Below, in pieces: positions 2,668 to 21,368 of a stretch of 21,538 nt of DNA (positions are counted from its first letter, which is position 1; the number at the start of each line of letters is the position of its first letter). Under the pieces are notes generated by a model. That model made no database searches, had not been told where the DNA came from, and saw only the letters and a program-made list of their open reading frames with translations. This DNA comes from a virus. Lineage: Duplodnaviria > Heunggongvirae > Uroviricota > Caudoviricetes. The DNA lies in the IMG/VR virus record IMGVR_UViG_2740892229_000015. One strand, 5' to 3'. The position numbers and the translations under genes were made by a program.

Positions 2668-3266
2668 TACGCAAACTCCAGTAGTTGTGCGGCCACATTT
2701 TCAACTTCCTCCTGAGAGGAGAATTTACGGAACAGAATCCAGTTCCACAGCACATTCAGTACAGATTTATAAACCTGCTGAAACTCGACTTCGTCCATAT
2801 TCGCAAAAGCGATGGATTTTGCCCGACGCCCACGGCTACCGTCCGGATAAATATGCTCGGTGTAAAATCCGGCCTGAATGGTTACCCACTCGCGGAAAGC
2901 CTCAAACGACTTTAGCAACGCCGTATCCCGGGTTCTACGAGTCGCAACGGTGTTAAGGTATTGCTCTGCGGCATCACTCAGGGCTGGCGTGTGTTCCCGA
3001 CCAACTGATTCGCACAGGTAATCAACGAAACCAGACAGCAGTTCTCGTTCGCGAGGCGTGATCGCCCCACCGACCGGAGTCCAGTAATCGAATCCCAGTT
3101 GCAGGAGTTTGAAAAAACGCTTGTGGAATGCGTAGTTACGCACACGCTTAAAATCTGCGTGTATCCACTCACCTATTTTGATTTGATGCAGAAAATCGCA
3201 ACTCTCCGGCGTCGCCGGGAGAAGTAAACCAGAAGAAGTTTGTTTGACCAGTTGTATATGCGCCAT
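2667..3266 (-). CDS. Conserved lambdoid nin-region protein of unknown function (199 aa; possibly DUF1367-like)
   Basis: ORF track; tightly coupled to the YbcO-like gene; family assignment is from memory only. Confidence 0.5.
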   Translation of the reverse strand: MAHIQLVKQTSSGLLLPATPESCDFLHQIKIGEWIHADFKRVRNYAFHKRFFKLLQLGFDYWTPVGGAITPRERELLSGFVDYLCESVGREHTPALSDAAEQYLNTVATRRTRDTALLKSFEAFREWVTIQAGFYTEHIYPDGSRGRRAKSIAFANMDEVEFQQVYKSVLNVLWNWILFRKFSSQEEVENVAAQLLEFA

Positions 3267-5157: not shown

Positions 5158-6146
5158 TGTCTGGACAATACATTCCCTATCACTTAAGGCATAATAAGTC
5201 TATTGATAGAGAGATTTTTCTCGAAAGCCTAAACCTCTTAAGCAAAAGACTAAATATTCAAGAATATACATATATAGGTTTTGGTGGTCCGATGCTTGAA
5301 GATTTTAGAATCATGCATAATCGTATCGCTCTTTCTGATATGATTTCTCTCGAAGAACAAGAGTCTACTCACATCAGACAAAAATATAATTTGCCTTATA
5401 ATTGTATTGATTGTAAGCTAATATCAGCTCATGACTTTATTCTTGATTATAGTTTTTCTAAACCATCAATAACATGGTTAGACTATGCCTCCCCGAAAAA
5501 AATACAAACGGATCTAGATGATATACACTTACTAAGTACTAAAGTAAGCTCTTTTGATATTTTGAAGGTCACCTTCCCCATAAATCCTAGTTCTTATTAC
5601 CAACGTAGAGTTGGAGAAAGTTTAGATATTTTTAAAGAAGCTTTTATTAATTCATTAAAATCATTGCTTGGGAAAAAGTATCTTGATTTTAATCTTCAGA
5701 TATCAAATGCAGATCTTTCAGATCGTAAGATTAAAGCTCTTTTAATACGAATTATTACAAACGCTTTTAGATCAGCAATAGAACGTGGTCTTTCAGGACG
5801 TAAGGATAAGATTCAGTATTACCCATTATCCTTAAATCAATATAATGATGGCAGTCATACCATGTTGACAATATCAGGTTTTTTCTCCTCAGAACAAGAA
5901 TATATAGAGTTATCTAAGGCATGCGACCTTTCTAACTGGCAATTTTATTCAACAAATTGGGAAGACGTGCAAGAAATAGCAATACCAACACTAACAATTA
6001 AAGAAAAGATAAATTTAGATAGTAAACTGCCTGATAAAGAAGCATATCAGGCAGCCGCTGAAGAGTTCTCTTTAAACGAAAATGAACGGGATAACTATTA
6101 TAAATACTATAGGTTATACCCTAACTTCCAAAGAATTATGGTTTAA
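5157..6146 (+). CDS. Protein of unknown function (329 aa), translationally coupled to the GHKL ATPase; possible effector of the cassette
   Basis: ORF track 5154..6146; ATG at 5157 overlaps the ATPase TGA (TGATG); GAGGTG RBS; no motif I can recognise. Confidence 0.75.
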   Translation: MSGQYIPYHLRHNKSIDREIFLESLNLLSKRLNIQEYTYIGFGGPMLEDFRIMHNRIALSDMISLEEQESTHIRQKYNLPYNCIDCKLISAHDFILDYSFSKPSITWLDYASPKKIQTDLDDIHLLSTKVSSFDILKVTFPINPSSYYQRRVGESLDIFKEAFINSLKSLLGKKYLDFNLQISNADLSDRKIKALLIRIITNAFRSAIERGLSGRKDKIQYYPLSLNQYNDGSHTMLTISGFFSSEQEYIELSKACDLSNWQFYSTNWEDVQEIAIPTLTIKEKINLDSKLPDKEAYQAAAEEFSLNENERDNYYKYYRLYPNFQRIMV

Positions 6147-7265
6147 ATATTCGGGCTGTACTCTTTTATTTAATAAATTGTACAGCCCCTTTAATATATA
6201 TTCAGCAACTATTGGTGACACGCTATTTCCTATTTGTCTGAAACTATGCCATTTAGTTACATGAAAGCGAAACCAATCAGGGAAGCCTTGTAATCTAGCA
6301 GCTTCTCTTGGTGTAATCACTCTTGGATGATAAGGGTGGATCGGCCTGACGGCTTGAAAGCTTCCTTTATCTCTAGCGGTTCCCGCCCTTAAAGTCGGGC
6401 AAAAACCATTTGGATCTAATCTTGTAGATCTTGAAATTTTATCAGTTTCCCCAAAAGATAAGGAAGCATAACGCTCTTGGACGATTTTGCTATGTAATGT
6501 TCCGGTACATCCAGATATGATATTATTTTTTAACTTAGCGATCGATTCTGTATCACCAACATTCCGAGGGATCTGCCCCCATAATTTTTCATAAAATCCC
6601 CCTTTTCGATCTTTTTTAATTGTTCGCCAACTCTCAGAGTCTGATTGCCAATTGGCATCGATAATATCTGGTAATCCATACAAAGCATCTTTTACAGTAA
6701 CCGGATCAATCATTTTAGGCATAAATACTTCATCTGAAATATCAAGCTTCAATGATTTTTTTACACCGATAAAAAAATATCTAGTTCGAATAGTTGGAGC
6801 ACCATAATCAGATGCTTTTACCTTGATGGGATCAAGAATATCATAATCACCGCTAACCAAATTAAATGCTTTATTTCTAATGCCAGAATATTTCTCTTGC
6901 ATAATACCTGGAACATTTTCTGCCAAAAAGAATAATGGCTGTAATTCTGATACTAAACGGTAGAAATGCATGTAAAGCTGATTCCTGCTATCATCAGGAT
7001 TCCCCTTGCCTATTGAACTAAATCCTTGGCACGGAGGACCGCCAATAATACCATCTATGGGCATATCGTTTTTAAAAAAACCCTTAATTATTTCTGCATT
7101 TAGTAAAGAAACATCTTCTTGGACGTGCAAACTTCTTGGAAAATTAATTGCGTGAGTATTAATAGCATGTTGATCAATTTCAACTGCCATTTTAACATCA
7201 AATCCAGCACGTGCAGCACCAAGACTTAGACCTCCAACGCCAGAAAACAAATCTATTACATTCAT
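6114..7265 (-). CDS. DNA (cytosine-5)-methyltransferase (383 aa)
   Basis: ORF track; canonical C5-MTase motifs: I FSGVGG, IV GPPCQGFS (catalytic Cys), VI ENV, X QIGNSVSP; 3' end overlaps the convergent 329-aa gene by 33 bp. Confidence 0.9.
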   Translation of the reverse strand: MNVIDLFSGVGGLSLGAARAGFDVKMAVEIDQHAINTHAINFPRSLHVQEDVSLLNAEIIKGFFKNDMPIDGIIGGPPCQGFSSIGKGNPDDSRNQLYMHFYRLVSELQPLFFLAENVPGIMQEKYSGIRNKAFNLVSGDYDILDPIKVKASDYGAPTIRTRYFFIGVKKSLKLDISDEVFMPKMIDPVTVKDALYGLPDIIDANWQSDSESWRTIKKDRKGGFYEKLWGQIPRNVGDTESIAKLKNNIISGCTGTLHSKIVQERYASLSFGETDKISRSTRLDPNGFCPTLRAGTARDKGSFQAVRPIHPYHPRVITPREAARLQGFPDWFRFHVTKWHSFRQIGNSVSPIVAEYILKGLYNLLNKRVQPEYLNHNSLEVRV

Positions 7266-8120: not shown

Positions 8121-8171
8121 NNNNNNNNNNTTCATCAGAGGTGGCGAGGGATTTCTCCCCCGCCGGGGCTC

Positions 8172-8327
8172 TTACTCCTCAGGTTCGTAAGCTGTGAAGA
8201 CAGCGACCTCCGTCTGGCCGGTTCGGACTCGTACCTCGCAGAGGTCTTTCCTCGTTACCAGTGCCGTCACTATGACGGTTAAACAGATGACGATCAGGGC
8301 GATTAACATCGCCTTTTGCTGCTTCAT
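8172..8327 (-). CDS. hok: Hok/Gef-family type I toxin (51 aa, MKQQKAMLIALIVICLTVIVTALVTRKDLCEVRVRTGQTEVAVFTAYEPEE), HokD/RelF-like
   Basis: ORF track 8172..8384; internal ATG with AGGAGAAG RBS; single TM helix plus conserved C-terminal Cys, matching the Hok family as I recall it. Confidence 0.8.
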   Translation of the reverse strand: MKQQKAMLIALIVICLTVIVTALVTRKDLCEVRVRTGQTEVAVFTAYEPEE

Positions 8328-8437
8328 AGCCTGCTTCTCCTTGCCTTTCGGCACGTAAGAGGCTAACCTACGTTTGTGAAGCATAGATTGGGCCTCAGAT
8401 TAATGTTAAGCGTCTTGCAGGACGCGTAATGTTAACT

Positions 8438-8543
8438 GGGGCTTTTCTCTGTCTGCCTTACGGTGGCATGCCCGAGGCAGACAGCCTCAAGCACCCGCAG
8501 CAATTCTACTTAACTCTCGCTTTACCGCAAACCGTTTTTACCC
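8438..8543. repeat. Copy 2 of the conserved ~105-bp element (palindrome ctgtctgcc...ggcagacag), here about 110 bp upstream of hok on the hok-coding strand
   Basis: Direct comparison with 7518-7622. Confidence 0.6.
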
Positions 8544-10783: not shown

Positions 10784-10793
10784 NNNNNNNNNN

Positions 10794-12953: not shown

Positions 12954-12963
12954 NNNNNNNNNN

Positions 12964-13670
12964 GAACCGCCCCGGAAATCCTGGAGACTAAACTCCCTGA
13001 GAAAGAGGTAAACAGGATGACTAAAAATACTCGTTTTTCCCCCGAAGTCCGTCAGCGGGCGATTCGTATGGTTCTGGAAAGTCAGGATGAATATGACTCA
13101 CAGTGGGCGGCAATTTGTTCCATTGCCCCAAAGATTGGCTGTACGCCGGAGACTCTGCGTGTCTGGGTTCGCCAGCATGAGCGGGATACCGGGAGTGGTG
13201 ATGGTGGACTCACCACCGCTGAACGTCAGCGTCTGAAAGAGCTGGAACGTGAAAATCGTGAACTGCGCCGCAGTAACGATATCCTTCGCCAGGCTTCCGC
13301 TTATTTTGCGAAGGCGGAGTTCGACCGCCTCTGGAAAAAATAATGCCTCTGCTGGATAAGCTGCGTGAGCAGTACGGGGTCGGACCGGTATGCAGTGAAC
13401 TGCATATTGCCCCGTCAACGTATTACCACTGTCAGCAACAGCGACATCATCCTGATAAACGCAGTGCCCGTGCGCAGCGCGATGACTGGCTGAAGAGAGA
13501 GATACAGCGCGTATACGATGAAAATCATCAGGTATACGGTGTGCGTAAAGTCTGGCGCCAGTTGTTACGCGAAGGTATCAGGGTGGCCAGATGTACAGTG
13601 GCGCGCCTCATGGCGGTTATGGGACTTGCCGGTGCTCTCCGGGGTAAAAAGGTCCGTACTACCGTCAGCC
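12964..13670 (+). mobile_element. IS3-family insertion sequence, left part only (IRL, orfA, first ~110 codons of orfB); homology to the other copy ends at ~13670
   Basis: Terminal repeat gaaccgccccgg at the contig start; orfA/orfB in -1 frame arrangement; transposase resembles IS629/IS3411-type as I recall. Confidence 0.8.
13017..13343 (+). CDS. IS3-family transposase OrfA (HTH, 108 aa)
   Basis: ORF track (its N-terminal residues spanning the N run are artefactual); GAGG RBS; leucine-zipper-like C-terminus. Confidence 0.9.
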
Positions 13671-13690
13671 GATTTACGGGCCGTAAGTAA
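13343..13690 (+). pseudogene. IS3-family transposase OrfB, truncated: diverges from the intact copy after ...KKVRTTVSR and stops 5 codons later
   Basis: Comparison with 13972-14854. Confidence 0.7.
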
Positions 13691-13971
13691 CGAAGTTGGA
13701 TGCAAATGTCAGATCGTGTGCGCCTGTTATGGCTCGGCTGGTAAGAGAGCCTTATAGGCGCATTTGAAAAAACTCCAGCTATACCGGAAGATATTTATTA
13801 TTAACAGGAGAGGTTTGCTTTTCTGTGTAGGTTTAGATTTTGTGTTTGCAGGGTAAACAAAACTGATTAACTCGTCATTTCGGTAACTGAAATAGTTTGC
13901 TGTTGGATTTGCCCCTATATTTCCAGACATCTGTTATCACTTAACCCATTACAAGCCCGCTNNNNNNNNNN

Positions 13972-14854
13972 ACTGCTGGATAAGCTGCGTGAGCAGTACG
14001 GGGTCGGACCGGTATGCAGCGAACTGCATATTGCCCCGTCAACGTATTACCATTGTCAGCAACAGCGACATCATCCGGATAAACGCAGTGCCCGTGCGCA
14101 GCACGATGACTGGCTGAAGAAAGAGATACAGCGCGTATACGATGAAAATCACCAGGTATACGGTGTGCGTAAAGTCTGGCGTCAGTTGTTACGGGAAGGT
14201 ATCAGAGTGGCCAGATGCACTGTGGCACGTCTCATGGCAGTTATGGGACTTGCCGGTGTTCTCCGGGGTAAAAAGGTCCGCACTACCGTCAGCCGGAAAG
14301 CCGTTGCCGCATGCGACCGCGTAAACCGTCAGTTCGTGGCAGAACGTCCAGACCAGTTGTGGGTGGCTGATTTTACCTGGGTAAGCACATGGCAGGGCTT
14401 CGTTTATGTGGCGTTCATCATTGATGTGTTCGCCGGATACATCGTGGGATGGCAGGTCTCATCATCCATGGAAACAACATTCGTGCTGGATGCACTGGAG
14501 CAGGCGTTGTGGGCCCGTCGGCCGTCCGGCACAATCCATCACAGTGATAAAGGTTCTCAGTATGTATCGCTGGCCTACACGCAGCGGCTTAAGGAAGCCG
14601 GATTACTGGCATCAACAGGGAGTACTGGCGACTCGTATGACAACGCGATGGCTGAGAGCATCAATGGTCTTTACAAAGCGGAGGTAATACACCGTAAGAG
14701 CTGGAAAAACCGGACAGAAGTGGAACTGGCCACACTAACGTGGGTGGACTGGTATAACAATCGACGATTGCTGGAAAGGCTGGGCCATATTCCTCCGGCA
14801 GAAGCAGAAAAAGCTTATTATGCTTCCATCGGAAATAATGATCTGGCAGCCTGA
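13972..14854 (+). CDS. IS3-family transposase OrfB (DDE integrase core), 5' end lost in the N run
   Basis: ORF track 14165..14854 plus open frame back to the contig start. Confidence 0.85.
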
Positions 14855-15068: not shown

Positions 15069-15611
15069 TCAAATAAAACCAGCTGCCTTCCGGCGTTCGT
15101 ATTCCTGTTTCAGCCGCTCAATTGGCGTTGGCCCTTGCGGGTGTTTCGCCCCTTCCAGTTGTCGTCGCACTGGCGGAACACTCATCCCGTTACCAACATG
15201 CTTTGCCCATTTCGTCAGTTGCCGTTCCGCAAGTCGTTTTAACTCACCCTGCGTCATCTGGCGCTCAATCCCTCTGGTACGCATTTCGAGGCAGATGTGG
15301 TACAGCACAGGCTGTGGCCACGGGTATTTATCACTCCCGTCGTATCGCCAGGATTCATTGCGCCAGCGCCGGTACTCTTCCATCACTGCATCCACCGTAA
15401 GACCAAATGGATTTGCCCCACTCTCCGAAATCAGTGCAACAAACTCAGCCAGGTCCGGGGGCCACGTTTCACCCGCCCGGCAGCGGTCCATGCACTGACG
15501 GCAGACCAGCCGGATTTGCTGTTCAGTCATCGCGCCAATCTGGGCAATCCAGAGCTTCGAAGGTGCGGCCCCGTTCTTCTGTGTCCAGCGGTTCGAATAC
15601 ACCTCCCCCAT
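15069..15611 (-). CDS. Lambda P-like replication protein (helicase loader); start uncertain, longest ORF begins at 15731
   Basis: ORF track; collinear similarity to lambda P as I recall it (FLPSPGQFVAW vs TWPPDLAEFVAL, YPWKSNAHYW vs YPWPQPVLYH). Confidence 0.65.
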   Translation of the reverse strand: MGEVYSNRWTQKNGAAPSKLWIAQIGAMTEQQIRLVCRQCMDRCRAGETWPPDLAEFVALISESGANPFGLTVDAVMEEYRRWRNESWRYDGSDKYPWPQPVLYHICLEMRTRGIERQMTQGELKRLAERQLTKWAKHVGNGMSVPPVRRQLEGAKHPQGPTPIERLKQEYERRKAAGFI

Positions 15612-16172
15612 AAGCTCCCACAGCTTCCAGGCCGTTTCCGTTGCTGATAAATCCGTTGTCACGTTCCCACTGTTCGCGTGCTGCCCGGATTTCCTGAACT
15701 GCCCGTGATGCCGTGCCACCTGATGCTGCATGGCTTACCCCCTTGCTGACTGGTTTTACCTGTGCCCTGACGTGCTGCACGTGGCGGGCAAATTTCTGCT
15801 CCCACTGAACCTGCGTGAAAACCTTCCCCTCCGCCATCCAGTAATCCCGGAATGCGGCAAGCTCTGCAGGTGTAAATTCCGGCTCAGGCAGAGCCATACC
15901 CCACACTGCTGCCCGTTGTCGAAAATCCGACGACGGCTGCCAGACAGTAGTCATCGAAAATTTCCCGATCGGTTCGCTCAGGCCGTCCAGGTATTCAGGT
16001 TCGGCTGTCTGCAACGGCGCACCATGCGACTCACCGGTTGGAGCACTCTCGCGCATGCGCGCGTTATGTGTGGGGTTTAATTCTGTATCTGTATCTTTAT
16101 CTGTCGTGACTTGTCGTGACATGTGCGTGACATTTCGTGACGCGCCGTGACAATCGCCATTTTGTTCCCGCT
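15523..16172 (-). CDS. C-terminal part of an O-like replication initiator, truncated by the N run inside its iteron region
   Basis: ORF track 15523..16236 (the part beyond 16172 belongs to another piece); shares the iteron-encoded segment REQNGDCHGASRNVTHMSR with the O-like gene at 16277-17353. Confidence 0.6.
16081..16152. repeat. Origin-type iterons: tandem ~10-11-bp repeats containing CGTGAC, next to tatctgtatcttta repeats
   Basis: Read directly; same array as at 16885-16960. Confidence 0.6.
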
Positions 16173-16182
16173 NNNNNNNNNN

Positions 16183-16236
16183 AAGAACCTGCCCTTTAAT
16201 TTTTTCCCGCTCTTCTTGTGTAAAAACTTTTGCCAC
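16183..16236 (-). CDS. First 18 codons of a gene (GTG start; VAKVFTQEEREKIKGQVL...) immediately downstream of the O-like gene, cut by the N run
   Basis: GGAGGG RBS upstream of GTG. Confidence 0.3.
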
Positions 16237-16276: not shown

Positions 16277-17353
16277 TTACCCCCTGAAGCCCGGTGGAAT
16301 TTCGGTATCCGGTTCAGAAATATGATTCACACAACGCTGGTTGTTCGTACCGCTTACCGGGAGCAACCAGGGGTTTTCAAAATTCCGGTCCGGTCCAAAA
16401 AACGTCGTCGCTCGCTGAACAAATTCCGTTCCCGTTTTCCCGGTAGCCGCCAGGTATCTTGCGTAACGCCTCACACCATCCAGCATGGCCTCTGGTGGCA
16501 CCCCCTCGCGTAATCTGGCCTTCCAGGCACTGAAAGCGGATTTCTTCGGGTTTGCCCCAGCACGCAACGGGTATTCCCGCCAGACCTGTTCGAACACATC
16601 CGGATAATCTACTCGCCCCACAGGCTGCCCGGTGTTTTCCGGGACTACCCGATCGGCTTCCCGCTGAATGGCGGAATCGGCTTCAGGCTGCTGCAGTTGG
16701 TGTGATTGCTCCGGCCTTGCGGTCATCACCTGCTGCACAGCGCCCGAATCGGCTTTCAGCGCATACGCTGAATCGGCTTCCGGTGTCGTGCCTGCTGGCT
16801 GACCAGGATTGACGGTCTGAACATCCCCTGCCTGGTTCGTGGCGTTTTTTACGCCATGGACCATAGTGTTTTGATCTTCTTGATCTGTATCTTTATCTGT
16901 ATCTTTATCTGTCGTGACTCGTCGTGACATGTGCGTGACATTTCGTGACGCGCCGTGACAATCGCCATTTTGTTCCCGCTTTCTTTCCCTCTCTCGCTGC
17001 GCCCTCTTGCGCTCTGCAGGAGATTTTGCGGTTTGCGAAATATTGCCGTTGTCCTCTTTAAGCACCTGGCGTTTTTCCCATCCAGTGATTAAATCACCAT
17101 CAAGTACCCGCCCCTGCATCGTCTGCAAAATTGAATCAATTACCTCTTCTGTCACGTCGAGCGCACTTGCCAAATCTTCTGTCGTGACATCAATGTGACC
17201 TCGCGTGACATTTCGTGACGCGCTCACCAGGAGGTGGATATACACTGCCATCACTGTTGCAATTGGCTGCCCTGACACCCTGGCAATTGTTCGCCACTTA
17301 GGGTCATTTGGCATGTCATGCCATAATCTGAGCCAAGCGTTAGCCATACTCAC
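16277..17353 (-). CDS. O-like phage replication initiator (358 aa) containing the origin iterons
   Basis: ORF track; two iteron clusters inside the coding sequence; position downstream of the cro/cII-like genes. Confidence 0.7.
   Translation of the reverse strand: MSMANAWLRLWHDMPNDPKWRTIARVSGQPIATVMAVYIHLLVSASRNVTRGHIDVTTEDLASALDVTEEVIDSILQTMQGRVLDGDLITGWEKRQVLKEDNGNISQTAKSPAERKRAQRERERKREQNGDCHGASRNVTHMSRRVTTDKDTDKDTDQEDQNTMVHGVKNATNQAGDVQTVNPGQPAGTTPEADSAYALKADSGAVQQVMTARPEQSHQLQQPEADSAIQREADRVVPENTGQPVGRVDYPDVFEQVWREYPLRAGANPKKSAFSAWKARLREGVPPEAMLDGVRRYARYLAATGKTGTEFVQRATTFFGPDRNFENPWLLPVSGTNNQRCVNHISEPDTEIPPGFRG
16885..16960. repeat. Iteron cluster (CGTGAC-containing direct repeats) inside the O-like gene; likely replication origin
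   Basis: Read directly. Confidence 0.6.
17178..17222. repeat. Second, shorter iteron-like cluster near the 5' end of the O-like gene
   Basis: ctgtcgtgacatcaatgtgacctcgcgtgacatttcgtgacg. Confidence 0.45.
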
Positions 17354-17418: not shown

Positions 17419-17844
17419 TCAATGTACTGCCACAGCATTTCCTGCCGGGCCACCACGGTTCATCTGATTGAAACCGGCGATTGCCACTGCGACAAAATCA
17501 TCAGCGTCTCTCACCAGTCGCTCCCGCGTCTCCACCAGCTCCCGAAAATAAGCTGAACTGTGGCTGCGCATTCTGGCCACCAGCAAAGGTGGCATTGCCT
17601 TTTCGATCGCTGGTAACAACGCCTGAATTTTTTCAACTGCATCAGGGGTATCTTTCTCTATCCAGCGGAAAATTTTCTGGGTATTGCGAGCCAGGGCTTC
17701 CGGATGGCTGTCGTCGTACAGTTCAGGAAACGTCATACCCAACTCAAAATAAGCCTGGGTTATTCCAGCTGCCGGAACTTTTTCGCCATCAGGACGCGCC
17801 CAGGCATTCATCGCCATGCGGATGTGTTCATGCTTGATTTTCAT
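17419..17844 (-). CDS. YdaT-family protein (141 aa from MKIKHEHIRMAMNAWA), the cII-position gene of Rac-like prophages
   Basis: ORF track 17419..17916; internal ATG with AAGGGGGG RBS; N-terminus matches YdaT as I recall it. Confidence 0.7.
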   Translation of the reverse strand: MKIKHEHIRMAMNAWARPDGEKVPAAGITQAYFELGMTFPELYDDSHPEALARNTQKIFRWIEKDTPDAVEKIQALLPAIEKAMPPLLVARMRSHSSAYFRELVETRERLVRDADDFVAVAIAGFNQMNRGGPAGNAVAVH

Positions 17845-18070
17845 GAATCCCCCCTTGGTTAGAAGGCGGATTATGATCAGAACCGGGAATGACAACCGTC
17901 GGTATGTGTAACTCATATTTGAGCGCCCCGGCAGTGACTGCCTGAATTAGCAACGCCCATTTCCACGGAACCTCTTCCCCCCACATGCTGACTGTGGTTT
18001 TTGACGTTCCTAGAGCTGCGGCTGTTTTAACAACTCCGCCAAAATAGCCTAATACTTCTGATTTTTTCAT
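17828..18070 (-). CDS. YdaS-like Cro-type HTH regulator (80 aa from MKKSEVLGYFGG)
   Basis: ORF track 17828..18112; GGAGCG RBS; divergent from the CI-like repressor. Confidence 0.65.
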   Translation of the reverse strand: MKKSEVLGYFGGVVKTAAALGTSKTTVSMWGEEVPWKWALLIQAVTAGALKYELHIPTVVIPGSDHNPPSNQGGIHENQA

Positions 18071-18800: not shown

Positions 18801-18937
18801 CCGACCTCATCTATTTGATTAACTGTATGCCATCGTGGTGATGGCTTAACAGCTGCCTGCTTAAAATGTTTTGATAAAAAAACATTGACCTGAAAAGTTC
18901 ATTTTTCTAAACTTCATTCATTCCCTCTCCCCCCCCC

Positions 18938-18994
18938 CACAGAATGCAGGGCAATACTTCGAGTTACCAGGCAGTGGTCAGGGGTTAAGTAGCC
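18938..18994 (+). repeat. Conserved ~57-bp element (cacagaatgcagggcaatacttcgagttaccaggcagtggtcaggggttaagtagcc) preceded by a C-run; second copy at 20679-20735
   Basis: Direct comparison (3-4 substitutions); a TTGACC-N17-TAAACT promoter-like sequence lies just upstream in this copy. Confidence 0.55.
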
Positions 18995-19004
18995 NNNNNN
19001 NNNN

Positions 19005-19199
19005 GTCTTTCTCTACCCAGCGGAAAATTTTCTGGGTATTACGGGCCAGGGCTTCCGGATGGCTGTCGTCGTACAGTTCCGGGAACGTCATCCCCAGTTC
19101 GAAATAAGTCCGGGCTATTTCAGCTGCTGGAACTTTCTCACCGTCTGGATACGCCCAGGCATTCATTGCCATGCGGATGTGTTCATGCTTGATTTTCAT
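19005..19199 (-). CDS. N-terminal 65 codons of a second YdaT-family gene, truncated by the N run
   Basis: ORF track 18978..19199; paralogue of 17419-17844. Confidence 0.65.
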
Positions 19200-19458
19200 G
19201 AATCACCCCCGCCTCTGGTTGTGTGTTAGCCTGATACTCGACAGGTAAGCCGTCGGTTGGGTTGGGATAAGTACTGCCATCAATCTCGTGCGGAGTTACT
19301 ATCCAGCCTGTTGCTTCGCACCAGCGTAAAATTTTTTTCCCCGTAAGTTTCGCCCGTCCGGTAATGACATGGCTTACCATCCCTTGGGTTACCCCAACAA
19401 TTTCAGCAAAATGCTTCTGAGTTATACCGGAATGATGCAAATATTCTCCAAGATTCAT
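19183..19458 (-). CDS. Cro-type HTH regulator (91 aa, YdaS-like)
   Basis: ORF track; GAGGTG RBS; HTH QKHFAEIVGVTQGMVSH. Confidence 0.65.
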   Translation of the reverse strand: MNLGEYLHHSGITQKHFAEIVGVTQGMVSHVITGRAKLTGKKILRWCEATGWIVTPHEIDGSTYPNPTDGLPVEYQANTQPEAGVIHENQA

Positions 19459-19489
19459 TGTTCACCTCATGTGATGTCATTACGATCAT

Positions 19490-19531
19490 TAATAGCATTG
19501 TTATTTTTAAAAGTAAATAGCATTACTATTT
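19490..19531. promoter_or_regulatory. Two operator-like repeats (taatagcattgttatt, aaatagcattactatt) between the cro-like and repressor genes
   Basis: Read directly; same half-site AATAGCA as the palindromes at 20614-20653. Confidence 0.45.
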
Positions 19532-19565
19532 CAAAGAGATTAATAATCTTATTAGAATTGAAGGT

Positions 19566-20066
19566 ATGAAAAGAAAATCCCTGTCAGAGATCGACCTGCA
19601 AGCCGCCCAGAGACTGAAAGAAATCTGGACGGCGAAAAAAAATCAACTAGGGTTAACCCAAGAGCGTGCGGCAGAAATTCTGGGATTTTCGACACAGGGA
19701 GCTGTAAGCCATTATCTAAATGGTCAGACACCTTTAAATCTTGAGGCTGTTATCAAGTTCGCAGGGTTGCTGCAAGTTCCTCCCGAGTCAATCAGACCAG
19801 ATATGGCCGAGTTGTTACAAATTGTAAGGATGTATCCCCAAGAATCTGGGGAGGACAATGTTGTCACTATATCTGCAGATATGGAACAATCGGAAAACGA
19901 ACTTCCGTTTAATATAGACCCCATGGAGCGGGATTTGCTCCAGACGTTCAGGGCTTTCCCCAAAGAAGATAAAGAGAAAATGCTTAAGGAAATGAAGGAG
20001 AAAAAAGAATCAATTGAAGAAATCGTTGCGCGATGGCTAGCTGCGCAAAAGGGTCGTCGCGCCTAA
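19566..20066 (+). CDS. HTH_XRE-type repressor (166 aa), PaaR-like: first gene of a three-gene regulator/antitoxin/toxin operon
   Basis: ORF track; HTH LGLTQERAAEILGFSTQGAVSHYLNG; gene order as in paaR2-paaA2-parE2. Confidence 0.65.
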   Translation: MKRKSLSEIDLQAAQRLKEIWTAKKNQLGLTQERAAEILGFSTQGAVSHYLNGQTPLNLEAVIKFAGLLQVPPESIRPDMAELLQIVRMYPQESGEDNVVTISADMEQSENELPFNIDPMERDLLQTFRAFPKEDKEKMLKEMKEKKESIEEIVARWLAAQKGRRA

Positions 20067-20083
20067 TCTGAGGAGGTAAAAAC

Positions 20084-20275
20084 ATGAGTACAGCCCTTTC
20101 CCCGATAATTTCTGAATTTGAAACAGTCGAACAAGAAAACAGCTATAACGAATGGTTGCGAACCAAAGTGGCAGCAAGCCTCTCAGATCCCCGTCCTGCA
20201 ATTCCACATGACGAAGTAATGGCTGAAATGGAAAACCTTATTGCTCAATTAGCTGCAACGAACAGGAGTGAGTAA
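20084..20275 (+). CDS. PaaA2-like small antitoxin (63 aa)
   Basis: ORF track; GAGGAGG RBS; stop overlaps the toxin start (TAATG). Confidence 0.65.
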   Translation: MSTALSPIISEFETVEQENSYNEWLRTKVAASLSDPRPAIPHDEVMAEMENLIAQLAATNRSE

Positions 20276-20565
20276 TGCTGCCCATTTTATGGCTACCTTC
20301 TGCACGTGATGATTTACGTCAGATCGTAGCCTATATTGCTAAGGAAAACCCTCCCGCTGCACGTAGACTAAAAATACGCATTGAAACATCAGTTTTGTCA
20401 CTTACTGAACACCCTTATCTGTACCCACCGAGCGAAAGAGTTCCAAGTCTTCGTGAGATAGTGACTCATCCTAACTACATAATACTTTACCGAGTAACAG
20501 CATCTAACATCGAGATCGTAAATGTAGTTCACTCACGAAGACAGTATCCAAACAAAACCTGTTAA
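20275..20565 (+). CDS. parE: ParE/RelE-superfamily toxin (96 aa), ParE2-like
   Basis: ORF track; ParE-like sequence pattern; coupled to the upstream antitoxin. Confidence 0.75.
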   Translation: MLPILWLPSARDDLRQIVAYIAKENPPAARRLKIRIETSVLSLTEHPYLYPPSERVPSLREIVTHPNYIILYRVTASNIEIVNVVHSRRQYPNKTC

Positions 20566-20578
20566 TCCTTCCTGTCAA

Positions 20579-20603
20579 CAACCACCTTCGGGTGGTTTTT
20601 TTC
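20579..20603 (+). terminator. Rho-independent terminator after the toxin gene: aaccacc-ttcg-ggtggtt followed by TTTTT
   Basis: Perfect 7-bp stem, GNRA-like loop, T-run. Confidence 0.65.
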
Positions 20604-20613
20604 TTGCCACGAT

Positions 20614-20653
20614 AATAGCACTGCTATTTACATAATTAAATAGTAGTGGTATT
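20614..20653. promoter_or_regulatory. Operator-like palindromes aatagca-c-tgctatt (perfect) and aaatagtagtggtatt, overlapping a promoter-like sequence; OL/pL-like
   Basis: Read directly. Confidence 0.45.
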
Positions 20654-20678
20654 GTTCATTCATCAACCCACCCCGCCC

Positions 20679-20735
20679 CACAGAACGCCAGGCAATACTT
20701 CGAGTTACCCGGCAGTGGTCAGGGGTTAAGTAGCC
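20679..20735 (+). repeat. Second copy of the conserved ~57-bp element, at the 5' end of the rightward early operon
   Basis: Direct comparison with 18938-18994. Confidence 0.55.
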
Positions 20736-20834
20736 AGCCCGAGGCGTATGAACATGACGGCGGGAACACTTTATATAACAGCGCAGCAGTTTTTTAGTTC
20801 CGCTACCCCGGCGTTAAGGGGAAATGAGGTCAGC

Positions 20835-20990
20835 ATGGATACTATCGATCTTGGCAACAATGAATCTCTGGTGTACGGCGTGTTTCCCAACCAGGACGGC
20901 ACATTCACCGCGATGACGTATACCAGAAGCAAAACGTTTAAAACCGAAAATGGTGCCCGTCGCTGGCTGGAAAGAAACTCAGGTGAGTGA
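20835..20990 (+). CDS. Small prophage protein (51 aa from MDTIDLGNNESLVYG), YdaF-like
   Basis: ORF track 20748..20990; internal ATG with GAGGT RBS. Confidence 0.55.
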   Translation: MDTIDLGNNESLVYGVFPNQDGTFTAMTYTRSKTFKTENGARRWLERNSGE

Positions 20991-21119
20991 TATGGATTTC
21001 GACACAATCATGGAAAAGGCTTACGAAGAATACTTCGAAGGCCTTGCCGAAGGCGAAGAAGCTCTCAGCTTCAGTGAGTTTAAACAGGCGCTTTCCAGCT
21101 CGGCAAAATCTAACGGCTG
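20991..21119 (+). CDS. Small acidic protein (42 aa, MDFDTIMEKAYEEYFEGLAEGEEALSFSEFKQALSSSAKSNG)
   Basis: Hand translation; GGTGAG RBS; below the ORF-track cutoff. Confidence 0.35.
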
Positions 21120-21149
21120 ATAAGCGAAGCAGCACCGCGAGGAATCAGT

Positions 21150-21368
21150 ATGCAGAAACGAGAACCCGTCATCATCTCGCCAGACTATACCGATGATGAA
21201 CTTTATGAGTGGATGCGCCAGAAAATTAATGCAGCGCAGGATCTGAAATGGGCCAATGAAGCCAGGGCTAAGCAGGCTGAAAATCTGTCCGCTCTGGAGC
21301 AGGATATCACCAGGCTGGAAAAAGCAGCGGCATTAAGCATTGCCAGAATGATTACATACCCGCGTTAA
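21150..21368 (+). CDS. Hypothetical prophage protein (72 aa)
   Basis: ORF track; GAGGAA RBS. Confidence 0.55.
   Translation: MQKREPVIISPDYTDDELYEWMRQKINAAQDLKWANEARAKQAENLSALEQDITRLEKAAALSIARMITYPR

Follow-up and report, generated by a model that had tools for sequence, protein, structure and literature searches.

Two distinct prophage immunity regions in the window analyzed here, a 21,538-nucleotide stretch of DNA from a tailed phage record, carry nearly the same sequence just behind their promoters. What is this sequence, and does it act as an antitermination site, as another kind of RNA signal, or not at all? Early-left operons of the N-less Rac/Qin/CP-933P type encode the division inhibitors KilR and DicB, the sRNA DicF, RecET-type recombinases and excision functions. 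An unannotated RNA with strong covariation that opens such a transcript is an obvious candidate regulator.

Two leader copies brought together by a draft assembly

The sequence GGCAATACTTCGAGTTACCNGGCAGTGGTCAGGGGTTAAGTAGCC is present at 18950-18994 and again at 20691-20735 with 0 mismatches (45/45 identical), and dinucleotide shuffles gave 0.00 chance matches to it. The wider repeat covers 65 nt (18930-18994 versus 20671-20735) at 60/65 identity, so the near-identity at both places given in the preliminary description is real. Its promoter-like hexamers were also found ahead of each copy. The promoter scan gave a sigma70-like pL-type promoter, TTGACC-17-TAAACT, at 18885-18913 on the + strand in the first (LexA/CI-like) immunity region, and the second region has TTTACA-17-TATTGT at 20627-20655 (+), with a TG 5' of the -10 and a probable start site at about 20661-20663. 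Homology between the two loci begins directly 3' of the -10 of the first promoter, aligned with the -10 of the second. Ahead of the second promoter lies the intrinsic terminator of a paaR2-paaA2-parE2-like operon (AACCACCTTCGGGTGGTT plus a T-run, 20580-20604, +), and operator-like repeats of the AATAGCAnTGCTATT type (20614-20653, repeat families D3 and I1) overlap the promoter itself. Repeats of this type are also seen at 19491-19538.

The window is scaffolded from draft contigs at ten joints of 10 N each, and at one of them (18995-19004) the left and right sequences come from two different prophages. Because copy 1 ends exactly at this joint, the right edge of the proposed 57-bp element is a contig-end artefact, and the real element measures about 100 nt. 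In the complete genome, the homology of both leaders extends over a leader of about 170 nt and a ydfA-like gene. Escherichia coli 2013C-4991 (NZ_CP027355.1) contains the two contigs at 1,255,442-1,258,252 and 1,576,488-1,578,871, each at 100% identity; the two immunity regions thus lie about 320 kb apart in different prophages, and the contigs are adjacent in 0 of 5,426 complete genomes. The tandem layout is an assembly artefact. Distinct immunity modules do share the element, as had been described, but they do not form one locus.

Copy 1 (18927-18994, +) lacks its 3' domain at the contig end and gave a CM match of 45 bits over the N gap; its full-length version in the complete genome (L002, 8744-8848) scored 108 bits. 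Its helices are P0 (18930-18933/18981-18984), P1 (18937-18940/18974-18977) and P2 (18945-18951/18967-18973), with the apical loop at 18952-18966 and the junction at 18985-18994. Copy 2 (20665-20764, +) is complete and supported by covariation, with a CM match at 20668-20772 (111.8 bits, E = 3e-30). Downstream of it, a second, separate conserved leader module, GCGCAGCAG...GUUCCGCUACCCCGGCGUUAAGGGG (20780-20835, +), adjoins the Shine-Dalgarno sequence and also occurs in K-12 Qin, although Qin lacks the main element. The first early-left genes follow at 20836-21368 (+), namely a ydfA-like DUF1391 gene (20836-20990), ydfB (20992-21120) and ydfC (21150-21368), and in complete genomes dicF, dicB, an exonuclease gene, xis and int lie 3' of them.

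The leader folds as a conserved three-way junction

We conclude with high confidence that early-left (pL-type) transcripts of Rac/CP-933P-like lambdoid prophages open with the element, which makes up their first ~100 nt and folds as a conserved three-way junction. In an ungapped profile, identity was at background 5' of position -24, reached at least 0.95 at nearly every position over about 100 nt, and was lower thereafter. The closing helix pairs the 5' end of the transcript with bases just 3' of the conserved tail; in copy 2 this helix, Pc, is weak (CCC 20667-20669 with GGG 20762-20764). Inside it, a long interrupted P0-P1-P2 hairpin of about 60 nt (P0 20671-20674/20722-20725, P1 20678-20681/20715-20718, P2 20686-20692/20708-20714) is capped by the invariant 15-nt loop CAAUACUUCGAGUUA (20693-20707, +; family consensus CAAKACYNCGAGUUA), which varies only at positions 4, 7 and 8 among 57 distinct loop-plus-tail sequences from 123 distinct copies. 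An invariant junction, AAGUAGCC, then leads to the short P3 hairpin with its invariant loop GAGGC....GAACAUGA. In copy 2, the junction and 3' domain, delimited by conservation, read UUAAGUAGCC and then AGCC-CGAGGCguauGAACAUGAC-GGC (20726-20761, +), and P3 pairs GCC 20737-20739 with GGC 20759-20761. Across the family, the P3 stem measures 3-7 bp and its loop 12-22 nt, and the invariant tail has the consensus AAGUAGCCAGCCYGAGGCnnnnGAACAUGAMGGC.

The suggested covariance check across prophage homologues bore out a structured RNA, since the stems covary between genera. In the MAFFT alignment (A2), 14/14 pairs were changed on both sides and 76% of cells were paired, whereas shuffles reached 55.6% (0/500) and slid controls 28-49%; in the CM alignment (A4), 86% were paired versus 58.8% in shuffles, and 13/13 pairs covary. 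A position-constrained test of the closing helix separated cognate from non-cognate partners at p = 7e-6, with at least 9 sequence versions of the helix; the same search with no position constraint was noisy. The P3 pairing persists in lineages L176 and L276, where its sequence is entirely different, and takes the form ACC/GGU in L271. A small invariant hairpin proposed by RNAalifold, GCC-AGCCYGA-GGC, found no support in L176, and P3 was used instead. The predicted folding energy was no better than that of shuffled sequence (z = +0.2 to +0.7), and mutual information gave no convincing pair for a loop-to-tail pseudoknot. From Escherichia to Arsenophonus, the stems vary freely and the loops and junction are invariant, with strong covariation in diverged copies from Serratia, Pectobacterium, Symbiopectobacterium, Arsenophonus, Winslowiella and Superficieibacter.

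These patterns bear on whether the sequence has a function at all. It sits exactly at a mosaic boundary, as would be expected of a conserved linker that merely marks where immunity and early-left modules recombine; compensatory changes in four helices across genera, together with the invariant loops, make a functionless linker scarcely credible and cannot stem from hitch-hiking or recent exchange.

They also bear on which strand folds. The folded molecule could instead be single-stranded DNA or minus-strand RNA, antisense to the pL leader. A.C pairs, which are G.U on the minus strand, outnumber G.U pairs 30 to 18 overall, and the predicted energy of that strand is slightly lower. However, the A.C cases are concentrated at two positions, three independent single closing-helix changes in the Pectobacterium clade are all G.U on the + strand, and we saw no conserved promoter or terminator on the minus strand, whose flank there is the variable linker. 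Because the wobble counts tie in the core pairs (13 G.U versus 13 A.C), we assign the + strand from context and regard a minus-strand molecule as very unlikely.

The element marks the start of early-left operons

In all lineages, the element lies 10-55 nt 3' of the -10 hexamer of a sigma70 promoter, and in E. coli, Serratia, Pectobacterium, Symbiopectobacterium, Superficieibacter, Winslowiella and Arsenophonus this promoter comes after a repressor gene and its terminator. The element would begin a few bases 3' of the transcription start of a repressor-controlled pL-type promoter. It behaves as a module: about 20 promoter/operator types (21 upstream clusters) precede it, and the gene that comes first after it is one of at least 4 kinds. 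Far from being limited to the two copies of the window, it occurs at 5,746 places in 3,434 of the 5,426 complete E. coli genomes (~63%), as well as in several other enterobacterial genera. K-12 Rac carries it between racR and ydaG (112.5 bits by CM), on the minus strand at about 1,419,505-1,419,615 of NC_000913.3, which makes it directly testable in K-12. With filters off, CM searches turned up a single copy in each prophage and no copy on the pR side.

In 48 of 126 distinct loci, the strand of the element also carries DicF about 1 kb downstream, followed by dicB, exo, xis and int; DicF itself ends in an intrinsic terminator. The element is missing from the dicB leader of K-12 Qin, and this ydfA-dicB operon occurs without it in Qin and in some phages, so the element is dispensable for the operon. 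No phage protein was consistently linked to it.

The element is noncoding and matches no Rfam family

No coding sequence covers the element in the PGAP annotation among the matches listed, and its stems carry insertions and deletions of 1-4 nt, including non-multiples of three; the conserved sequence is therefore not coding. Against Rfam 15, the window gave no match at gathering thresholds, and at E <= 10 the region 20600-20900 gave three chance-level matches only, none of them on the + strand over the element. We found no literature on the element, and its sequence string matched nothing in the papers searched; a term search of the paaR2 paper on the region 3' of parE2, terminators and antitermination gave no match. 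Two named candidates were set aside by location: the AgvB/Pas sRNAs lie in the late region downstream of Q/PR', and the Rho terminator t_rac lies inside racR, outside the leader. At minimum, the element constitutes a new RNA family and deserves an entry in annotation resources.

A leader peptide was considered and rejected, since the open reading frame from AUGACGGC runs for 4-78 codons with no conserved peptide and L276 has no AUG. The same region raises the question of a riboswitch-like sensor or translational leader, in which the junction would bind a small molecule or ion, or the fold would show or hide GAGG...AUG, and so tie early-left expression to host physiology. The build is aptamer-like: the stems covary, the junction and the loops are invariant, and the weak closing helix leads straight into variable sequence; an SD-like GAGG stands 9 nt 5' of an AUG in nearly all copies, with a variable 4-nt spacer. 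But the element lacks a conserved expression platform and has no terminator immediately 3' of it, the short open reading frame (4-78 codons) encodes no conserved peptide, and AUG is missing in L276 and GAGG in L176. We therefore hold such a sensor to be improbable; if ligand or host-factor sensing were nevertheless true, prophage gene expression would be tied to host physiology.

The element is not a nut site

The preliminary description had suggested a nut-like antitermination site. The element does sit in the pL leader, and a canonical boxA occurs within 1.5 kb downstream in 11 of 227 loci only. Yet neither the element nor the leader in the window contains boxA ([CT]GCTCTT[TA]A), and the element has no boxB with a GNRA-like pentaloop, its hairpins being P0-P2 with the 15-nt loop and P3. 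An N gene is missing from the window and from most E. coli hosts of the element, and each phage has a single copy, with no nutR counterpart. By PHROGs, N-like proteins were confined to the L225 clade. In L154, L188, L248 and L225, the element is followed downstream by a boxA-boxB nutL, whose true boxB (CGCU-GAAAA-AGCG) is separate from it, and by an N gene (phrog_271, E = 4e-19); the element therefore coexists with nut sites and does not replace them. This part of the earlier proposal is largely refuted already, and a lambda-type nut site of boxA plus boxB serving an N-like antiterminator is highly improbable. What stands is the broader idea of a functional site in the early-operon leader: a structured, covarying element common to unrelated immunity modules.

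A possible role in early-left transcript elongation

Freely varying stems, invariant loops and junction, and the lack of a linked phage protein suggest that the invariant bases probably bind a conserved host component, for which RNA polymerase, elongation or termination factors and the ribosome are candidates. Judging from these sequence patterns, we tentatively favor a cis-acting leader RNA that would control elongation or survival of the early-left transcript via such a host partner, although we give it somewhat less than an even chance. Once transcribed, the element would act in cis and set whether an RNA polymerase that has passed a derepressed pL goes on productively; in practice, premature Rho-dependent or intrinsic termination would be averted. 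The early-left operon is long, includes kil/dicB, recombination and excision genes, and has internal terminators such as that of DicF. In N-encoding relatives, an antiterminator role would be partly redundant, because a canonical nutL and an N gene coexist with the element there. The absence of a copy in the pR operon, unlike putL/putR, counts against elongation control, as do the dispensability of the element in Qin-type operons and a folding energy no better than that of shuffled sequence. A crude count of downstream terminators scored higher on the antisense strand and so lends no support to a special need for antitermination.

Stated more specifically, the element may represent a new class of protein-independent, processive elongation-control RNA, or a riboswitch-like sensor, whose invariant loop and junction would directly bind a conserved host component and thereby gate the kil/dicB, recombination and excision genes of most Rac/CP-933P-type prophages in E. 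coli and of their relatives in other Enterobacterales. In this form, the proposal is possible but rather doubtful.

The long hairpin allows a different view, in which the 5' structure blocks 5'-end-dependent decay or serves as a target of RNase III like the one in the lambda N leader, and sets half-life rather than elongation. The interrupted hairpin of about 60 nt starts within about 10 nt of the 5' end, and in K-12 the level of the ydfA transcript is affected by RNase III (PMC10448788), although the Qin leader there lacks the element. A stabilizing hairpin, however, requires no invariant 15-nt loop, junction, 3' domain or three-way junction, which leaves a role in stability or processing unlikely. 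Alternatively, the leader might be cut in the A/U-rich linker to give a stable RNA of about 100 nt that works in trans after induction, as a base-pairing sRNA or a protein decoy. DicF is already a processed sRNA made from the same operon, and the invariant single-stranded loop could be a seed or a protein site; against this, the element lacks both a terminator and a defined 3' end, we came across no account of this kind of RNA in the literature, and a site at the transcript start suits a cis role at least equally. We consider a trans-acting product quite improbable.

Comparison with known systems

DicF, KilS, STnc100 and the Pas/AgvB-type sRNAs are likewise small structured RNAs of lambdoid prophages, DicF even in the same operon, but they differ from the element in sequence and structure (Rfam negative), and the element has no terminator of its own. 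The RNase III hairpin of the lambda N leader and 5' stabilizers resemble it as long imperfect hairpins in an untranslated early-left leader; those are set by helix geometry and not by invariant loops or junctions, and the lambda hairpin comes after nutL, whereas the element comes before it. Like nutL of lambda and P22, which acts with N, the element would be a cis-acting RNA site in the pL leader, but it has neither boxA (CGCUCUUUA) nor the 15-nt boxB hairpin with a GNRA-like pentaloop, and in N-bearing relatives the true nutL (CGCTCTTTAACA-6 nt-CGCTGAAAAAGCG) is found 20-480 nt downstream of it.

Antitermination of the HK022 put type is factor-independent, and mutations in the zinc-binding domain of rpoC block it. 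A precedent for a leader RNA of the proposed kind is HK022 putL, which folds over about 70 nt from +3 of the pL transcript onward and needs no phage protein to act on RNA polymerase (PMC9378689). Comparison by eye and by CM revealed no family-level match to putL or putR in sequence or structure, and a CM search of the HK022 immunity region, which contains both sites, gave no match; resemblance to putR is confined to stems that covary in other genera. The two RNAs differ in architecture, put being two adjacent stem-loops and the element a three-way junction with a conserved 15-nt loop, and in distribution, since put is present in both early operons (putL/putR) and the element on the left only, also upstream of genuine nutL sites. 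They are alike in being multi-helix folded RNAs of about 70-100 nt directly after the pL start, with no dedicated phage protein nearby and in host phages without N. Should RNA polymerase or termination factors prove to be its target, the element would be the second RNA, after put, to reprogram elongation by itself.

The repeat belongs to longer leaders of two prophages

The 45-mer GGCAATACTTCGAGTTACCNGGCAGTGGTCAGGGGTTAAGTAGCC occurs twice in the window (18950 to 18994 and 20691 to 20735), with no match in dinucleotide-preserving shuffles, and the wider repeat around it is identical at 60 of 65 positions. Each copy lies behind a sigma70-like promoter, TTGACC-17-TAAACT (18885 to 18913) for copy 1 and TTTACA-17-TATTGT (20627 to 20655) for copy 2, which bears out the near-identical repeat behind promoter-like hexamers of the preliminary description. 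Its size of 57 bp was set by a contig end: the window, a draft scaffold, contains ten 10-N joints (182 to 191, 416 to 425, 1395 to 1404, 1486 to 1495, 8121 to 8130, 10784 to 10793, 12954 to 12963, 13962 to 13971, 16173 to 16182, and 18995 to 19004), and copy 1 stops exactly at the last of these. An alignment of the two full leaders shows homology from right after the -10 hexamer across about 170 nt of leader and the entire ydfA-like gene, so the repeat has a genuine left edge and an artefactual right one; the element measures about 100 to 110 nt. In the complete genome NZ_CP027355.1, the contigs left and right of the joint at 18995 to 19004 lie at 1.255 Mb and 1.576 Mb, both with 100% identity, and tandem immunity regions as in the window occur in none of 5,426 complete E. 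coli genomes. The two immunity regions, first described as one locus, are two different prophages.

Window pieces flanking the joints come from different prophages of one genome, among them two ydaT 5' parts (17651 to 17854 and 19006 to 19209, 89% identical) and a replication gene in two alleles (15523 to 16236 and 16277 to 17353). Synteny that seems to cross any N joint is unreliable. Rfam matches elsewhere in the window (minus strand, 235 to 407, 1227 to 1686, and 8322 to 8496; plus strand, 13298 to 13414 and 13974 to 14038) comprise STnc100 sRNA, three tRNAs, the sok antitoxin RNA of a hok/sok locus, and the IS3 ALIL frameshift pseudoknot, a half copy of which stands directly after an N joint. 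Operator-like repeats AATAGCAnTGCTATT lie on either side of the paaR2-paaA2-parE2-like module in OR-like and OL-like positions (19491 to 19538 and 20614 to 20653), an arrangement consistent with a putative role of PaaR2 as a CI-type repressor of both divergent early promoters.

The element is a separable and widespread module

An ungapped conservation profile built on 120 IMG/VR contigs with the 19-mer core shows background identity upstream of -24, values of 0.95 or more at almost every position between -24 and +74, and reduced identity farther on. Upstream sequences fall into 21 clusters, all with -35 and -10 hexamers ending about 8 to 12 nt before the block, and the first gene behind it is of at least four unrelated kinds. 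Because K-12 Qin keeps the same ydfA-dicF-dicB operon without the block, its promoter lying nearer ydfA, the block is a separable module.

Gene order is the same in every genus: cro-like gene (minus), repressor-like HTH gene (plus), terminator, promoter with operator repeats, element, and variable early-left genes. The element is present in 3,434 of the 5,426 complete E. coli genomes (5,746 places, up to 6 copies per genome), and no annotated feature underlies it there among the matches listed. K-12 MG1655 carries it in Rac between racR and ydaG (112.5 bits; NC_000913.3, about 1,419,508 to 1,419,612, minus strand), behind TTGACA-17-TATAGT and RacR operator repeats; the Rac Rho terminator t_rac lies inside racR, upstream of this pL-type promoter (PMC4150792). 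Among 50,697 phage records, no more than about a dozen recently sequenced temperate coliphages have it, plus one Actinobacillus-labelled record. The latter (PP818812.1, "Actinobacillus phage vB_Apl-pPE4," deposited host Actinobacillus pleuropneumoniae) has a 76% identical copy in an enterobacterial, Rac-like immunity and early region encoding DicA, YdaT, Kil, and exonuclease VIII, and its host assignment may deserve a check.

The element folds into a covarying three-way junction

A degenerate 3'-half pattern retrieved copies from Serratia, Winslowiella, Symbiopectobacterium, Superficieibacter, Pectobacterium, Arsenophonus, E. ruysiae, and Shigella, and loop-based patterns retrieved more than 120 further viral contigs. 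Among genera the stems of the long hairpin differ wholly in sequence and keep their complementarity, as in P2 (GCCGGG/CCAGGC in E. coli, CACGAAG/CUUCGUG in Serratia, CGCUGAG/CUCAGCG in Pectobacterium, and GCCGGGA/UCCCGGU in Winslowiella) and likewise in P1 and P0. A plain MAFFT alignment gave both-sided changes in 14 of 14 pairs, with 76.1% of cells paired versus 55.6 ± 2.0% in shuffles (0/500) and 28 to 49% in slid controls; the covariance model-derived alignment of 39 distinct sequences, which is fitted to the model, gave 86.0% versus 58.8% in shuffles and covariation in 13 of 13 pairs. This covariation contradicts a functionless linker, a reading that we regard as scarcely credible.

The 57 distinct loop-plus-tail sequences (from 123 distinct copies) show hardly any variation in the 15-nt apical loop (CAAKACYNCGAGUUA), in the junction (AAGUAGCC), or in the 3' domain (AGCCYGAGGCnnnnGAACAUGAMGGC). 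Within the 3' domain, helix P3 pairs the strand after GUAGCC with that after GAACAUGA, and it is retained with unrelated sequence in two loci (L176, UCAACCG/UGGUUGA; L276, CCUGUU/AGCAGG) and in the form ACC/GGU in a third (L271). The closing helix Pc pairs the extreme 5' end of the transcript with bases 0 to 2 nt past the conserved GGC, in versions such as CAGCAAC/GUUGCUG, CCAACC/GGUUGG, CACCCC/GGGGUG, CGUUGAG/CUCAACG, GUCAAC/GUUGAC, AACAAC/GUUGUU, and AACCC/GGGUU. In a comparison at fixed positions that used a single representative of each lineage, cognate strands scored a mean of 5.0 versus 3.9 for non-cognate ones, and a length of 5 bp or more was reached by 59% versus 25% (Mann-Whitney p = 7e-6). 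Copy 2 of the window has a Pc of just 3 bp. The covarying P0 to P2, P3, and Pc together define a three-way junction of about 100 to 110 nt (window 20665 to 20764), whose predicted folding energy by itself is unremarkable. No Rfam 15 family matches the element, nor does its sequence string appear in the literature searched. It is an undescribed structured RNA family at the early-left transcript start of Rac/CP-933P-type prophages, and the original guess of a functional leader RNA has held up.

Wobble counts (18 G.U versus 30 A.C over all pairs, 13 versus 13 in well-supported core pairs) do not make G.U pairs a proof of the plus strand, and in silico folding slightly favours the minus strand. 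That the folded form is a minus-strand RNA or DNA hairpin is quite improbable. The A.C cases concentrate at two positions, one of them likely unpaired in E. coli; a conserved promoter or terminator on the minus strand was not seen; and three independent single Pc changes in the Pectobacterium clade are all G.U on the plus strand. We infer, mainly from context, that the plus strand folds. Several independent lineages (window copy 2, Serratia L128, Symbiopectobacterium L129 and L147, Superficieibacter L130, and L163) share an A.C mismatch at one P2 position (alignment columns 26/46, window 20690/20710), which may reflect a conserved A+.C pair or offer a clue to the strand that folds.

A second leader module and the ydfA reading frame

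Just 5' of the Shine-Dalgarno sequence of the first early-left gene lies a second conserved module, GCGCAGCAG...GUUCCGCYACCC(C)GGCGUUAAGGGG (window 20780 to 20835; loci L150, about 2960 to 3008, and L133, about 6430 to 6470), shared by K-12 Qin, phage mEp237, and Citrobacter phage Chris1, all three without the main element. The module's small hairpin occurs as CGCC/GGCG and as CACC/GGUG, which looks like covariation.

The element as coding sequence was rejected on ORF and annotation evidence from homologues. In two E. coli leader variants, an ORF from an AUG inside the element (MTAG...) continues in frame into ydfA even with compensating frameshifts present (window 20748 to 20990; complete-genome locus L002, 8829 to 9063), and the 51-aa YdfA falls 19 N-terminal residues short of the PHROGs family profile for ydfA (70 positions). 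This frame is probably due to chance, an N-terminally extended YdfA being conceivable.

Possible function and relation to known leader RNAs

About 45 unpaired nucleotides are invariant across genera while the stems vary freely, and the flanking phage genes differ from lineage to lineage. This pattern suggests that the element acts in cis on the nascent transcript and has a conserved partner in the host. Terminators occur within the early-left operons, which are long; in 48 of 126 distinct loci, the element is followed after about 1 kb by DicF, which ends in an intrinsic terminator (PMC10448788), and farther on by dicB, exo, xis, and int. We tentatively prefer an elongation-control or anti-termination leader, in which the unpaired nucleotides would engage a conserved host component in cis, although the element coexists with N and nutL, has no pR copy, and is dispensable in Qin-type operons. 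The covarying hairpin might instead serve as a stability or RNase III element, which is possible but unlikely, and a riboswitch-like or translational leader is a reading that we consider somewhat more doubtful. A processed trans-acting RNA appears improbable.

The nut-like label given at first did not survive. The element lacks boxA and boxB, occurs once per phage, and mostly resides in hosts without an N gene, so a classical nut site is very improbable. In the clade of loci L154, L188, and L248, pL and the element are followed, after about 20 nt, by boxA CGCTCTTTAACA, boxB CGCU-GAAAA-AGCG, and an N-like gene, with nutL about 49 nt after AAGTAGCC. Locus L225 has an antisense moron (13003 to 13344, minus) between the element and the same nutL (boxA CGCTCTTTAACA; 13355 to 13390), followed by an N-like gene (13546 to 13890) whose product matches the PHROGs N-like family (E = 4e-19); the N-like genes downstream of the element carry a P22-N-like arginine-rich motif. 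The element therefore precedes and coexists with genuine nut sites.

A recognisable put RNA was also rejected: the covariance model finds nothing in HK022, the fold differs, and the right operon has no copy. The E. coli 3' strands of P2, P1, and P0 (CCCGGCAGUGGUCAGGGG, window 20708 to 20725) resemble HK022 putR (CCCGGCGUGGUCAAGG, about 4490 to 4470 in our HK022 locus, on the plus strand downstream of cro), but this similarity is probably fortuitous, since the same positions are covarying stems in other genera.

The function of the element is amenable to direct testing in E. coli K-12. In position it is like HK022 putL, which likewise lies at a transcript 5' end (PMC9378689). The Pas and anti-sRNA genes belong to the late region.
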